A DNA stretch of 64,000 nucleotides, taken from assembly GCF_057098645.1 (NCBI RefSeq), contig NZ_CM169472.1; one strand, given 5' to 3'. The position numbers were made by a program, and so were the translations under genes. The notes under the pieces are model-generated. The model was not told the origin of the DNA and did not search any database. It worked only from the letters and a program-made list of their open reading frames with translations. This document shows positions 51,049 through 59,698 of this stretch, piece after piece; position 1 is the stretch's first letter; each line of letters begins with the position of its first letter.

Positions 51049-51333
51049 TTAAAAAGGTAAAAAAGACACCAACCTTAAACCATCCAAATCTACCGGGGTA
51101 CGCCTGTTTACTCCAAATGTCTGGAACTCAAATCCCGATTCTGTATTCGTTGCCCATGCCATCACTACATTGCCCTCCTCCGCCAGTCCGGATATTTGTT
51201 CCCAGATCATTTCACGAATTTTTGCGGATACATCACCTACATATACTCCTGCACGGACTTCCAGCAACCAGATGGCTAATCTGCCTCGTAAGCGCGGAGG
51301 TACATTTTCAGTGACCACGACCAACATACTCAT
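51049..51333 (-). CDS. cas2: CRISPR adaptation endoribonuclease Cas2
   Basis: 94 aa from [19 protein letters not shown]; track ORF extended upstream. Confidence 0.93.
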
Positions 51334-51334
51334 C

Positions 51335-52252
51335 TCAGCTACTCCGATGTCCGGCATCTCCCAGAGAAACGGGAAGTGGAATAGCAACAGGCTGCGCATC
51401 TTCAGGTGGGGCCGGCGGCTGTATTTCCCCAGCAGCAAGCACGTCCTCTATAAGCGGAATCAATTTGGCTAATGTTTTACTACTGCGAAAAATATCCCTG
51501 CACGCCAAACGTACTTCCCGGTCCGGCTCACCAGGATTACGACGCGCTATCTCAAAAGCTTTCGGTACAACAGTGTCAAATTTAATGATATCCGCGATAT
51601 CGTAAACAAAGGAAAGAGGCTTTCCTGTATGCACAAAACCAATAGCTGGTGCATAACCAGCTGCAAGTATCGCCGCTTCAGTTACGCCGTATAAACAGGA
51701 AGTTGCAGCGCTAATGCATTGGTTGACCGTATCGCCCTTTTCCCAGTCTTTCGGATCGTAGCGACGTCCATTCCATGTCACGCCGTACTGCTTCGCCAGA
51801 AGTGCATAAGTTGCTCGCACACGACTTCCTTCTATACCTCTGAGTTGTTCTACGGAGCGTCGGGCGGGCGCAGGTTCACCAAACCGAAGTTCAAACATTT
51901 TGCGTACTACCTTCAGACGCAAATCTTCATCCAGAGCAAGTTTTGCCTGATAGAGTAGCTTATCTGAACGCGCACCACCAGGCTGGCCAGAAGCATAAAC
52001 ACGAATGCCCGCTTCCCCCACCCATACCAACAATGTTCCAACTTGCGCAGCCAAGCGTACAGCTGCATGCGAAACCCGTGTACCAGGTTCCAGCATGATG
52101 CAGGCAACCGAGCCAACAGGAATATGAGTGCGGATCCCTGTCTTGTCGATAAGTACAAACGCGCCATCTATTACATCGATCTGCCCATATTGCAGAAAGA
52201 TCATGGAGACGCGATCTTTGAGTGGAATGGGGTTAAGGGGAAGCCAAGCCAT
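51335..52252 (-). CDS. cas1: CRISPR integrase Cas1 (type I-E)
   Basis: 305 aa from [14 protein letters not shown] (track ORF starts 5 codons earlier at 52267). Confidence 0.93.
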
Positions 52253-56618: not shown

Positions 56619-57032
56619 TTGTTCTCCTTCATATGCTCCGACATTTCTCCTGCATTTCTATACGTCGGCACACTTCCGTTATCGGTAAAAACAAAGAAAA
56701 AATACGGCGTAATTAATTCAATAATCACATTCACTGCAAAAATATATTCATTGGTTTACTACAATTAACCTATACATATATTAAGATGTATTGAATTGTT
56801 TAAAGAAGATAATGCATGCATTTCAAATCTGCAAGTTATTCGTTTTATTATCAAAGAAACTTTTAGTTATAATAATTACCATAAATTTTATTACATGAAA
56901 TATTCATACTGTGAATATAAAATCTCATACCGGGAAATTAAAAGAAGATGTACATTGTGCACCTTCCCTACTTAAGTAGGGATAAACCGTTATTGGTCTT
57001 GTTATCGTCATTGATACCAATCATTCCCGAAG
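56619..57032. promoter_or_regulatory. AT-rich cas3-cse1 intergenic region (Cascade operon promoter region)
   Basis: 414-bp strongly AT-rich spacer; in E. coli K-12 the equivalent region carries the H-NS-silenced Cascade promoter and an antisense promoter. Confidence 0.55.
56961..56989 (+). repeat. solitary degenerate CRISPR-repeat-like element (hairpin + ATAAACCG)
   Basis: ACCTTCCCTACTTAAGTAGGGATAAACCG vs repeat GAGTTCCCCGCGCCAGCGGGGATAAACCG: 19/29 identical, 8-nt 3' segment identical, two compensatory stem changes preserving a 6-bp stem; on the opposite strand from the array. Confidence 0.6.
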
Positions 57033-59698
57033 TTATTTGGGATTTGCAGGGATGACTCTGGTCATCCCTTCATCCCCTGTATAGGTAATAACAATACTGT
57101 TACCCTGCCAGAACCATCCATCCTGATTCTGTTTCCCTTCCAGCCAAAGTAACCCATCTTCATCTACTACTTCAGAAAAACTACGTTTCCAGGTGAAGGG
57201 TACATTGACGCGATTAAGTGCAAGCGCCTCATACTGCTGTTCATGACTTAGGTCCTCGTAGACCTGGCCATCGAGCAGTTGTTTACCTGAAGACGTTTGT
57301 ACATAAGGCAATAATGGCAGGCTCATTTCCCCATCCCTCGTTACCGCAAGAATGGTTTCATCGTTATCCTGCAAACTATATTCTTCAGCCCACTGCAGAA
57401 CCTTGCGAGCCTTGAACCTCTTTTCACACTCAGCGCTTTCAAACTTATCCATGCCTTTGATGACCCATTCTGGCTCATCCATTTCAGCATCATCGTAAAT
57501 GCTATCCAGCCATTGCCGGTAGGCATCAGGGAAAAATAAGGATGCTCCATTAAGTTCCTCAATATGTTGCTGCGTCCGCCACATGACTCTAACGTTGCTA
57601 TAAATATGCTCATGTCGTCCGTAACCTTCGCCATCAGGCAGCAAAACGGTTGCCAGAGGAATCTCAAAACCGGCGGGACGATATTTACGATGATGCGATG
57701 TAAACGGCCTAATCGTTGGAAAAGCAAATCAGCGGGACAATGCTGGGTAATTAACCAATCAAAATCTACATCGAGTGATTGTTCCACGACCTGGGTGGCG
57801 ACAAGTATTCGTCCAACATTTCGCTCCCCATTTTTTCCGAAATTGCTAATGACACGATTCTCTTTTTCACGACGATCGTTCAGCGTAAAGCGCGCATGAA
57901 ACAAATCTATATCTACTTGCGTGTCATTTAGTTCCTTTAGCCGTTGGAAGCATAGTTGTGCAACGTCAACCAAATTGCAAATGAGGCAGACTTGTGCACC
58001 CGCGTTTGCCGCTGCGATCATTCGCTCTAACATCGTAAGGTCAGGTAACATGTCAGCTAAATAAATAGGTTCTGGCTGAATCGAAAAGCGGGGCGGGAGT
58101 TGTTCTGGATGAGCTAGCAGATCAAAACGTTGCGCACCATTCACACCTCGCCAGTTAATAAGTGGATATGCGGAGTTATTTTCCACTGGATCTGTATGCA
58201 GACCATAAGTATCCAGAACTTTCTGTTTTTGTTTCATTGGTAGGGTTGCGGAAAGAAGAATAACACTCCCTCCCACATCAGCCTGAGCCTTGAGCACTGC
58301 CTCCAGCAAGCCGTTCATATAGGTGTCGTAAGCATGAACTTCATCAACAATTAAAACACTTCGACCAATTCCCAAACCACGGATAAAGCGGTGTTTAACT
58401 GGCAATACCGATATCAACACCTGATCAATAGTGCAAACGCCGATTTGCCCAAGAAACACTTTCTTATTGCTTTGTGACAACCACTGACAACACTGAACCC
58501 ACGCTTCTTCTTGCCCCTGCTCAGTAAATGCGCGTGATTTTATTGATTGAAAAAGGTGGTTAAAACGTGAATTACCATGAGCAAGAATAAGATTTGGGGA
58601 GGTAAATAAACGGCTCGCGTTCGCTTCCATTCTGCTGAGCATTGCATTTGCAGTAGCTTGTGTAGGGAGGGCAAAAATAACACTCTCCGCAAGTTGTTGG
58701 TCAATAAGTTTCCAGGCATAGGCCAGCGCTGTTTCGGTTTTACCTGATCCCGTAGGTGCCTCAATCACCGTCAGCCCGGGAGCTGTAGGAAGAGCATCGA
58801 CCAACACCTGTAATTGTCTTGGTTGATAGCCATTGTCCAGTAAGGCATGTACGCCGTCATAACGACGCTTATTTGATACAAGGCCACTCAGCGCCAGTAC
58901 CCGACACGCATCCTGCTGTCTATCCTGAAAATATGTTCTTACCGCTTGTATTCCTGAAGGTGCATCTTCTTTGAATAGAAAGGTATCCGTTGTGGTCCAG
59001 GAACCTAACCAGTCAGCAAGCGAGCAAAAACCTGCTAACAGTGATGAACAATCAGGTGGTATATCGTTTATAGATAACCCGGCTGGCGTTAAAAATAATG
59101 CTTCGAGTACAGATATCCACTCCTCACGAGCCTGTTTATCTTGCGCAGCATAAGATGCCAAAGAAGCTGGCATTTCCCAACGCGACTTATCTTGATCCTG
59201 GGAATGTAATATAAAACCATGATGTCCTGTAACGGCCTCTACCCATGGAAACCAGGACTCATAAGGATGAGGAGCTGCATCAAAAAAACTGAAAAAATCC
59301 CCGGGAGATTGCTCTGAAAGTGAATCTTGGTTAAACCAATACAGACCGGCTGCACCATGATTAAATTTACGGCACATTTGTGTTGATGGACCATTAAGTG
59401 ATGGCGTTGCAGGATTTAATTTCAGCCAACTTTCTGCTGATTTATATTGGAATCGTATATCAAACTTTCCAATATCATGAAGAGCAATGAAAAATAACAG
59501 CCAGGCCTTCACCCTCTGTTTTGATAGCATTTCATTTCGGCAAAAAGTATTTTGCAGTACGACTGATTGATCCCACCAGCAATCTGCAACAGCAGCAACA
59601 TCAAGGCAATGATAAATTAACAGATGAATATCATTTCCTTTCGTCAGGCTTTTTGAGGATTTTCCCCAGTAATGGCATATATATTTAAAAGGTTCCAT
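57033..59698 (-). pseudogene. cas3: cas3 (HD nuclease + SF2 helicase) interrupted by a +1/-1 frameshift near 57695
   Basis: 785-aa ORF (59698-57341) carries the HD and helicase motifs (APTGSGKT, DEVH); Cas3 C-terminal domain is in another frame (57644-57033). Frames join if one C is added between CATCGC and ATCATCG (minus strand, ~57694-57696). Confidence 0.7.

Follow-up and report, generated by a model that had tools for sequence, protein, structure and literature searches.

Is the cas locus described here a complete and working CRISPR-Cas system of type I-E? It lies in a stretch of 64,000 nucleotides (contig NZ_CM169472.1, assembly GCF_057098645.1), which we call the window. The best explanation, in which we have high confidence, is that an Escherichia coli chromosome from the O145:H28 (EHEC) lineage carries here the canonical type I-E locus of the species (CRISPR1-cas, K-12 type) and that the cas3 gene of this locus is broken by a one-base deletion.

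A canonical type I-E locus at the CRISPR1 position

The following cas genes were identified.

cas3, 57033-59698, minus strand: pseudogene for an HD nuclease-SF2 helicase fusion, in two open reading frames, 57341-59698 (a) and 57033-57644 (b)
casA (cse1, cas8e), 55110-56618, minus strand: large Cascade subunit, 502 aa, intact; NF007247, 907 bits (cut-off, 576)
casB (cse2, cas11e), 54635-55117, minus strand: small Cascade subunit, 160 aa, intact; TIGR02548, 56.7 bits (cut-off, 28.5)
casC (cas7e), 53531-54622, minus strand: Cascade backbone, 363 aa, intact; TIGR01869, 427 bits (cut-off, 178)
casD (cas5e), 52854-53528, minus strand: 224 aa, intact; TIGR01868, 287 bits (cut-off, 69)
casE (cas6e), 52268-52867, minus strand: pre-crRNA endoribonuclease, 199 aa, intact; TIGR01907, 270 bits (cut-off, 45)
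cas1e, 51335-52252, minus strand: integrase, 305 aa, intact; TIGR03638, 377 bits (cut-off, 216)
cas2e, 51049-51333, minus strand: 94 aa, intact; TIGR01873, 140 bits (cut-off, 33)

All eight genes lie on the minus strand in the order cas3, casA, casB, casC, casD, casE, cas1, cas2, and the leader and array follow on the same strand. This is the type I-E order (cas3-cas8e-cse2-cas7-cas5-cas6e-cas1-cas2-leader-array) and is collinear with that of K-12. Families were assigned using the curated NCBIfam cut-offs and the type I-E models of PADLOC. Each cas gene scored above the curated cut-off of its own type I-E family, and the best PADLOC matches were Cas3e, Cas8e, Cas11e, Cas7e, Cas5e, Cas6e, and Cas1e; for Cas2, the generic Cas2 model scored slightly higher than the Cas2e model. 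CasA, the signature large subunit, was matched over its full length (1-502), scored 538 bits with TIGR02547, and was called Cas8e by PADLOC. The small subunit is encoded by a separate gene (PADLOC Cas11e; E = 1e-34). The I-E subfamilies Cas7e, Cas5e, and Cas6e are all represented, with PADLOC in agreement, and both genes of the adaptation module, cas1e and cas2e, are intact and have the K-12 lengths. The cas2 start was set at the ATG at 51333, which gives 94 aa as in K-12. The mechanically called open reading frame, which begins with a TTG at 51438, overlaps cas1, and its start was rejected.

The first-pass annotation had proposed these eight genes, in this order and on this strand, from the letters alone. 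Coordinates, NCBIfam, and PADLOC bear it out: every cas assignment was confirmed by the family models, the failure of which had been named as the outcome that would speak against them. No evidence contradicting the type I-E identification was found. The range given for the locus, 51049-59698, has the stop of cas2 and the start of cas3 as its exact ends; it leaves out the leader (50944-51048) and the array (50549-50943), which that annotation had counted as part of the set.

The locus is bordered as follows.

iap, 49491-50528, plus strand: NF007568, 705 bits
cysH, 60057-60791, minus strand: TIGR02057, 346 bits
hok/sok-type element (K-12 hokX/sokX locus), 59778-59934, minus strand: Rfam RF01794 (sok), 98.3 bits (gathering score, 59)

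The interval between iap and cysH is the position of the locus and, according to the literature, defines E. coli CRISPR1. The description of the cas genes as inserted between cysH and iap thus holds for the position but not if it is read as a recent event: the placement is the standard CRISPR1 position, an old, species-wide arrangement and not one that arose recently by insertion in this strain. The hok/sok remnant also lies between cysH and cas3. This element, for which K-12 has sokX annotated at the homologous position, belongs to the flanking context between the cysH terminator and cas3 and is not part of the system; no Hok-like open reading frame was found at 59778-59934. The GC content is 42 to 50% in the cas genes and 54 to 57% in the cys flanks.

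The comparison with K-12 MG1655 (cas3, b2761; casABCDE, b2760-b2756; cas1, b2755; cas2, b2754; CRISPR1 beside iap), which had been suggested as a check, revealed the same position, strands, gene order, and gene lengths. The locus DNA is ~97% identical to that of K-12, and the Cas proteins are about 96 to 100% identical to those encoded by b2754-b2761 (96.8 to 100% for the seven proteins other than Cas3). There are five substitutions in CasA, two in CasB, three in CasC, one in CasD, three in Cas1, and four in Cas2, and CasE is 100% identical. A sokX-type element is present between cysH and cas3 in both sequences. We conclude that the locus is an already known system, as had been claimed, with nothing new about it: it is of the K-12 type, and all family models were passed.

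One base is missing from cas3

The gene set is complete in content, as the first-pass annotation had it, but not in function at cas3, the frameshift of which it had alluded to. Indeed, directly after codon 668, cas3 is one base short: at 57695, a GG pair of the plus strand has lost one G, which is one C in the coding strand. Open reading frame a encodes residues 1 to 668 followed by 117 out-of-frame residues, giving a 785-aa product. Everything that follows helicase motif VI is lost, namely, the 220 residues 669 to 888, with the C-terminal domain among them. Their frame remains open to the stop codon at 57033-57035. The K-12 Cas3 residues 1 to 668 and 669 to 888 map to two different frames, and the NF007248 model is likewise divided, with model positions 1 to 661 in open reading frame a (1250 bits) and 679 to 877 in open reading frame b (301 bits).

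The O145:H28 genomes, e.g., RM12761 (NZ_CP007133.1) and FWSEC0002 (NZ_CP031919.1), are 99.93 to 99.95% identical to the window over 9.57 kb. Both have an intact 888-aa cas3, and the window is one base short; position 57695 is the only gap in the comparison with either genome and the only indel across the 9.57 kb. The rest of the window is also collinear with O145:H28 (18 SNPs and one indel in 49.6 kb). Restoring the base in silico yielded an 888-aa protein identical to the RM12761 cas3 product WP_000433160.1. This repaired Cas3 has 30 substitutions in comparison to K-12 Cas3, the gene of which lacks the frameshift, and retains H74, D75, K320, D452, and motif VI (QRLGRLHR; residues 661 to 668). 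Pfam places HD at 11-235, DEAD at 309-491, and Helicase_C/Cas3-like_C_2 at 556-671 of the intact protein. The gene is thus unmistakably a type I-E cas3, but not an intact single gene for an HD-helicase protein. Since a I-E cas3 is present but a 1-nt deletion disrupts its frame, the locus is a type I-E member by descent in which the effector nuclease gene is a pseudogene.

A fully functional system with a sequencing or assembly error in a single sequence could give the same picture. Such an error would fit the loss of a single G from a GG pair and the fact that, apart from the missing base, the gene encodes the RM12761 protein. Furthermore, a search of 5,426 complete E. coli genomes in RefSeq did not turn up the deletion, and the best matches there were all 99.1% identical with one gap; because of this absence, the lineage bearing it is known only from draft or short-read assemblies. 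However, at least 24 public contigs, which stem from several independent samples, encode the exact 785-aa product. Among the matches listed, it was found in six places, namely, two NCBI assemblies and four assemblies of SRA runs with DRR, ERR, and SRR accessions (DRR634178, ERR12122442, and SRR5033736 are among those listed), and the DNA of these loci is 99.95 to 100% identical to the window across the site. A two-base run is also atypical of homopolymer errors. Recurrence in several independent samples shows that the cas3 deletion is a real lineage mutation, and we rejected the error, which we regard as extremely improbable.

It is just as hard to credit that Cas3 works despite the break, either by ribosomal or transcriptional slippage or by reassembly of two polypeptides (residues 1 to 668 with the out-of-frame tail, and a C-terminal fragment). 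Split Cas3, with a Cas3' helicase and a Cas3'' HD protein, occurs naturally in other type I subtypes, and the downstream frame is open to the normal stop, both of which would favor such a rescue. However, the break lies within the helicase, directly after motif VI, and not at the HD/helicase boundary at which natural Cas3 is split. As read from the sequence, the site CGC ATC ATC GTA is not a slippery motif. Moreover, no start codon occurs in the downstream frame until a TTG at 57644, ~17 codons past the break, and the gene callers used for the public contigs predict only a 97-aa leftover.

The putative promoter region, the leader, and the array repeats resemble those of K-12

The noncoding parts of the locus are as follows.

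cas3-casA intergenic region, 56619-57032, minus strand: 414 bp, AT-rich, GC content of 33 to 35%
CRISPR1 leader, 50944-51048, minus strand: 105 nt, identical to K-12 at 104 of 105 bases
CRISPR1 array, 50549-50943, minus strand: six 29-nt repeats, a degenerate terminal repeat (50549-50577), and six 32-nt spacers

The AT-rich region between cas3 and cse1 was present as predicted, and 405 of its 414 bases match K-12. According to the K-12 literature, the homologous region contains the Pcas (Pcas8e) promoter, which is repressed by H-NS and activated by LeuO and LrhA, and a divergent anti-Pcas promoter. By this homology, we assign 56619-57032 as the putative Pcas region. A consensus promoter scan of 50400-60200 returned 11 sites, fewer than the 19.6 expected by chance in shuffled sequences; such a count does not locate Pcas, Pcas3, or Pcrispr, for which the homology to K-12 was used.

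The sole leader difference from K-12 is at window position 51004, which corresponds to leader position -61. In K-12, the leader elements are an IHF site (-9 to -35), a Cas1-Cas2 site (-1 to -4), and an upstream element (-50 to -55). The change falls outside all three, and homology to K-12 suggests that this stretch would serve as the leader and give spacer integration its polarity.

The 29-nt repeat occurs in six copies with 61-nt spacing (0 expected in shuffled sequences), two of which are single-base variants. It folds into a 7-bp stem with a tetraloop (-15.1 kcal/mol; z = -3.6), a hairpin of the kind recognized by Cas6e; the terminal repeat reaches only -5.3 kcal/mol. In Rfam, no CRISPR repeat family was matched at the gathering score, and the sok element was the only match. 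An orphan repeat had also been reported. When up to three mismatches were allowed, only the six array repeats and no additional copy were detected in the 64-kb window, and, apart from the terminal repeat at 50549-50577, there is no degenerate copy.

The spacers are lineage specific and lack detectable targets

The repeat sequence, the degenerate terminal repeat, and the oldest spacer (one mismatch) are common to the window and K-12. The window has 6 spacers, in contrast to 13 parsed in K-12, and only the oldest is shared. The O145:H28 arrays contain the same spacers in the same order as the window, which lacks three spacer-repeat units that are present in RM12761. In comparison to L004, a contig of the same cas3-frameshift lineage, two internal units are missing.

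When the whole array was run by blastn (E up to 1) against 50,697 phage and 72,556 plasmid records, no protospacer was found for any spacer. The matches obtained were driven by the repeat only and corresponded to other CRISPR arrays or misfiled chromosomes. A 27-nt match to Corynebacterium phages falls on the repeat and not on a spacer, and was dismissed as chance. Spacers 1 to 5 were also concatenated and searched by megablast, which detects near-exact matches only, against the 5,426 E. coli genomes, and no near-exact self or prophage target outside CRISPR1 arrays was found. In this search, 26 of the 5,426 genomes matched, each at one place; 18 of these places are annotated as CRISPR. The remaining eight genomes had single-spacer matches at unannotated places, which by their position appear to be the same CRISPR1 locus. 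The set of spacers, found in 26 of the 5,426 complete genomes, is thus specific to the lineage O145:H28; in combination with the cas3 deletion, it could be used as a marker of a sublineage when EHEC is typed. The related papers found on STEC CRISPR typing make no mention of cas3.

Interference is predicted to be lost

The working state of the locus can be described by the mechanism established for K-12, which we apply to this strain on the basis of near-identity. The array would be transcribed from the leader, and Cas6e would cleave the pre-crRNA at the repeat hairpin. One Cas8e, two Cse2, six Cas7, one Cas5, and one Cas6e would then assemble with the crRNA into Cascade, which would locate PAM-flanked protospacers and form an R-loop. 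Cas3 would be recruited to nick the target and to unwind and degrade it. Cas1-Cas2 and IHF would insert new spacers at the leader, and H-NS bound to the AT-rich Pcas region would normally silence expression. The requirement for Cas3, the requirement for Cas1-Cas2, and H-NS silencing are documented in the literature.

Since Cas3 is truncated, crRNA-guided, PAM-dependent interference is predicted to be lost in this strain, and primed adaptation would be lost with it. The Cascade and Cas1-Cas2 genes are intact. Processing of crRNA, Cascade assembly and DNA binding, and naive adaptation by Cas1-Cas2 could still proceed. The truncated Cas3 may even have residual nuclease or ATPase activity, which is conceivable because HD, DEAD, Helicase_C, and motifs I, II, and VI all lie upstream of the break.

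In some sister genomes, the locus is instead damaged differently, with an IS3-family element inserted in casA or cas6e or with a cas7e shortened by 8 codons. Naturally inactivated cas loci are known, e.g., through IS insertion into cas genes, as reported in PMC10359306. Those loci and the one described here have in common a loss-of-function lesion that arose naturally while the cas operon is otherwise complete; the lesion is an IS insertion there and a single-base deletion here.

Could the locus be maintained for a Cas3-independent purpose, with Cascade as a crRNA-guided DNA binder (CRISPRi-like repression) or Cas1-Cas2 acting in DNA repair? In favor of such a role, all seven genes other than cas3, as well as the leader and the repeats, are intact and nearly as in K-12. 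However, the search with spacers 1 to 5 revealed no near-exact match outside CRISPR1 arrays and hence no near-exact self-target, and the disrupted casA and cas6e and the shortened cas7e of the sister strains argue against selection that keeps Cascade in this lineage. Furthermore, no second lesion was found in cas3, and the frameshift looks very recent, so the intactness of the other genes needs no selective explanation. We consider a Cas3-independent role highly unlikely. The short, six-spacer array with its internal deletion and the independent lesions in sister strains fit an idle or decaying locus rather than one in active use.

The deletion may be the mark of a sublineage within O145:H28-type EHEC. 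Together with the IS insertions, the shortened cas7e, and the contracted arrays of sister strains, it could reflect recurrent selection against type I-E interference, a speculative reading to which we give only a small chance. If it were true, the switch-off of interference might, for example, allow the cell to tolerate prophages or plasmids that enter it. The other reading is that an H-NS-silenced locus is simply decaying under neutrality.

For annotation, the value of this result is that a textbook E. coli type I-E locus is the only defense locus in this region of the window. The proper record for this strain is an interference-defective locus (cas3 pseudogene) and not a working immune system. 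That near-identical strains carry several different lesions is a further small piece of evidence for the existing view that natural E. coli seldom relies on this system for immunity.

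Type I-E cas genes between iap and cysH

Minus-strand ORFs run unbroken from 59698 to 51049 (six-frame ORF list). On one side lies a plus-strand ORF (49491-50528); on the other, further minus-strand ORFs begin at 60057 and extend toward higher coordinates. The series thus lies between the genes iap, cysD, and cysN and the genes cysH, cysI, and cysJ. NCBIfam analysis assigned the series to type I-E Cas families, with all matches exceeding the curated cut-off.

Cas genes of the window, with NCBIfam assignment and protein identity to K-12. True starts (those of cas2, cas1, and casD among others) were fixed from the K-12 comparison.
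ORF 57341-59698, minus strand, Cas3 (NF007248, 1250 bits, model positions 1-661 of 878 only); 96-97%, split over two frames
ORF 57033-57644, minus strand, Cas3 remainder (NF007248 positions 679-877, 301 bits)
55110-56618, minus strand, Cse1/CasA (907 bits versus a cut-off of 576); 99.0%
54635-55117, minus strand, Cse2/CasB; 98.8%
53531-54622, minus strand, Cas7/CasC; 99.2%
ORF 52854-53534, minus strand, Cas5/CasD (true start 53528); 99.6%
52268-52867, minus strand, Cas6e/CasE; 100%
ORF 51335-52267, minus strand, Cas1e (true start 52252); 99.0%
ORF 51049-51438, minus strand, Cas2e (true start, ATG at 51333); 96.8%

The best PADLOC models were Cas3e, Cas8e, Cas11e, Cas7e, Cas5e, Cas6e, and Cas1e, while for Cas2 the generic model just outscored Cas2e. 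The GC content was 33 to 35% in the cas3-casA gap, 42 to 50% in the cas genes, and 54 to 57% in the cys genes. Together, the ORF list, both profile searches, and the repeat periodicity of the array show that the gene series and array are real, far beyond chance, and the type I-E assignments of the first-pass annotation were borne out. The set described there as complete does contain every cas gene, but cas3 is frameshifted. Its range of 51049-59698 corresponds exactly to the cas2 stop and the cas3 start, but the leader and array that it named fall outside. With these minor corrections, its interpretation is supported. All testable defining features of type I-E were found except an intact cas3 gene. 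In terms of ancestry, the locus belongs to the type I-E family; in terms of function, it represents a cas3-null allele.

Comparison with K-12 and O145:H28 genomes

The locus and K-12 MG1655 b2754-b2761 are collinear, have the same gene lengths, and share approximately 97% DNA identity. The Pcas-bearing intergenic region shares 405 of 414 bases with K-12, the cysH-cas3 spacer region 349 of 358, and the leader 104 of 105. The sole leader change, at position -61, falls in none of the elements that a review describes for K-12 (IHF site, Cas1-Cas2 site, and -50/-55 element).

Of the 5,426 complete RefSeq E. coli genomes, those that matched best were O145:H28 strains, including RM12761, RM13516, and FWSEC0002 (99.8 to 99.9%). 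Furthermore, RM12761 and the window are collinear over the first 49.6 kb of the latter, where they differ by 18 substitutions and one intergenic indel. We conclude that the window is ordinary E. coli chromosome of the O145:H28 lineage. Dozens of complete genomes contain an annotated locus that is nearly identical, in agreement with the earlier view of a known system.

The single indel relative to RM12761 in those 49.6 kb is an extra T at 38926, between the genes for hydroxyarylic acid decarboxylase subunit B and a MarR-family regulator in the mutS-rpoS variable region. In RM12761, the ascB-hycI region (positions 17255-18899 of the piece analyzed) carries annotated HigB-family toxin, HTH antitoxin, and hypothetical genes, and window positions 17000-18900 are collinear with it (position by homology). 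Three of the few substitutions relative to the closest relatives (56771, 56789, and 56798) cluster within 30 bp of the AT-rich Pcas intergenic region. Another difference from O145:H28 relatives (59876, A versus G) lies inside a sok antitoxin RNA element (Rfam RF01794, 98 bits; 59778-59934, minus strand) between the cysH terminator (60008-60039) and cas3. Since no Hok-like ORF was found near this element, it looks like a hok/sok remnant comparable to sokX in K-12. The sokX annotation of K-12 and the Rfam match are on opposite strands.

A frameshift truncates cas3

Compared to RM12761, we detected four substitutions and one gap in 9,570 aligned bases. The gap corresponds to the loss of one G from a GG pair (57695), which changes the coding strand from CGC CAT CAT CGT (R668 H669 H670 R671) to CGC ATC ATC GTA. 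Accordingly, residues 1-668 and 669-888 of K-12 Cas3 match two different frames. Restoring the base yields an 888-aa protein identical to the RM12761 product WP_000433160.1, which retains H74/D75 (HD), K320 (motif I), D452 (motif II), and QRLGRLHR 661-668 (motif VI). Because cas3 has no second defect, the lesion is probably recent. According to the Pfam limits (HD, 11-235; DEAD, 309-491; Helicase_C/Cas3-like_C_2, 556-671), the break lies right at the end of the conserved RecA2 core, and all of the protein beyond this point is lost. Part of the missing sequence is covered by an alignment with the solved Cas3 of T. fusca (query 156-811); based on published structures, we take the missing sequence to include the linker and C-terminal domain.

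The deletion was absent from complete RefSeq genomes: only 68 matched the 111-bp stretch across the site by megablast, the best 30 of them all at 99.1% with one gap. The exact 785-aa frameshift product was, however, present in a public protein collection, encoded on at least 24 contigs. The six places listed correspond to two NCBI assemblies (GCA_032490095.1 and GCA_015672825.1) and four separate SRA-run assemblies, with loci 99.95 to 100% identical to the window. A sequencing artefact is unlikely given this occurrence in several samples, which instead indicates a genuine sublineage mutation. The frameshift allele is thus already in public assemblies, and the locus is known in every respect. 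Recoding or a working split Cas3 is also unlikely, since the frameshift site is not slippery, the split is internal to the helicase, and no start codon follows until a TTG 17 codons on.

Leader and CRISPR array

Downstream of cas2, we found the following features:
50944-51048, minus strand, leader (105 nt)
50549-50943, minus strand, array with repeat GAGTTCCCCGCGCCAGCGGGGATAAACCG and a 61-nt period

Oriented as transcribed, the array comprises six good repeats, six 32-nt spacers, and a degenerate terminal repeat (50549-50577). Each good repeat folds into a hairpin with a 7-bp stem and a tetraloop (-15.1 kcal/mol); the terminal repeat lacks it and reaches only -5.3 kcal/mol. The sixth repeat has an A-to-T change at position 2, and the fourth (R4, 50732-50760) a loop C-to-T change (T13).

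All window spacers are found in O145:H28 arrays, which contain additional ones. A public contig of the same cas3-frameshift lineage has two more internal units; RM12761 has three more units and also one duplicated spacer. R4 has retained T13 from the upstream repeat of the longer arrays, as expected after a deletion by repeat-to-repeat recombination. The oldest spacer is the only one in common with the K-12 array and has one mismatch. Near-exact megablast matches to spacers 1 to 5 occurred in 26 of the 5,426 genomes, at a single place per genome. Eighteen of these places carry a CRISPR annotation; the remaining eight are unannotated single-spacer matches, whose position suggests the same locus. 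No matches were found in phage or plasmid records. These searches thus gave no evidence for recent acquisition, known targets, or self-targeting.

Predicted function and lesions in sister strains

Near-identity to K-12 makes it most likely that the system would work as it does there: the array would be transcribed from the leader, Cas6e would cleave at the repeat hairpin, Cascade would assemble and form a PAM-dependent R-loop, Cas3 would be recruited and the target degraded, and Cas1-Cas2/IHF would insert new spacers. According to the literature, Pcas3, Pcas8e, and Pcrispr are silenced by H-NS, and LeuO or LrhA can relieve this silencing. Interference and primed adaptation both need Cas3 (review), while Cas1-Cas2 suffice for naive adaptation. 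In the window, casABCDE, cas1, cas2, the leader, and the repeats are intact and cas3 is truncated; interference and primed adaptation have therefore presumably been lost, and naive adaptation, crRNA processing, and Cascade binding possibly remain available.

A Cas3-independent role that keeps the locus is not supported, since spacers 1 to 5 had no near-exact self-target in the 5,426 genomes and Cascade genes are disrupted in sister strains. IS3-family elements interrupt casA in both 12E115 and UTME-3, with distinct positions and orientations, and cas6e in UTME-3; these insertions of near-identical sister strains are absent from the window. The insertions are independent and were observed in NZ_AP024921.1 (locus positions 4728-7549) and NZ_CP168984.1 (2191-4103 and 6346-9168). 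In FWSEC0002 and 12E115, cas7e is 8 codons shorter (annotated 24 nt less, 355 aa): position 53556, 8 codons before the cas7e stop, is C in the window and T in both strains. The window, like K-12, encodes the full 363-aa Cas7e. That type I-E interference has been recurrently inactivated under selection in the O145:H28 lineage has a low probability; if true, it would be of modest interest.
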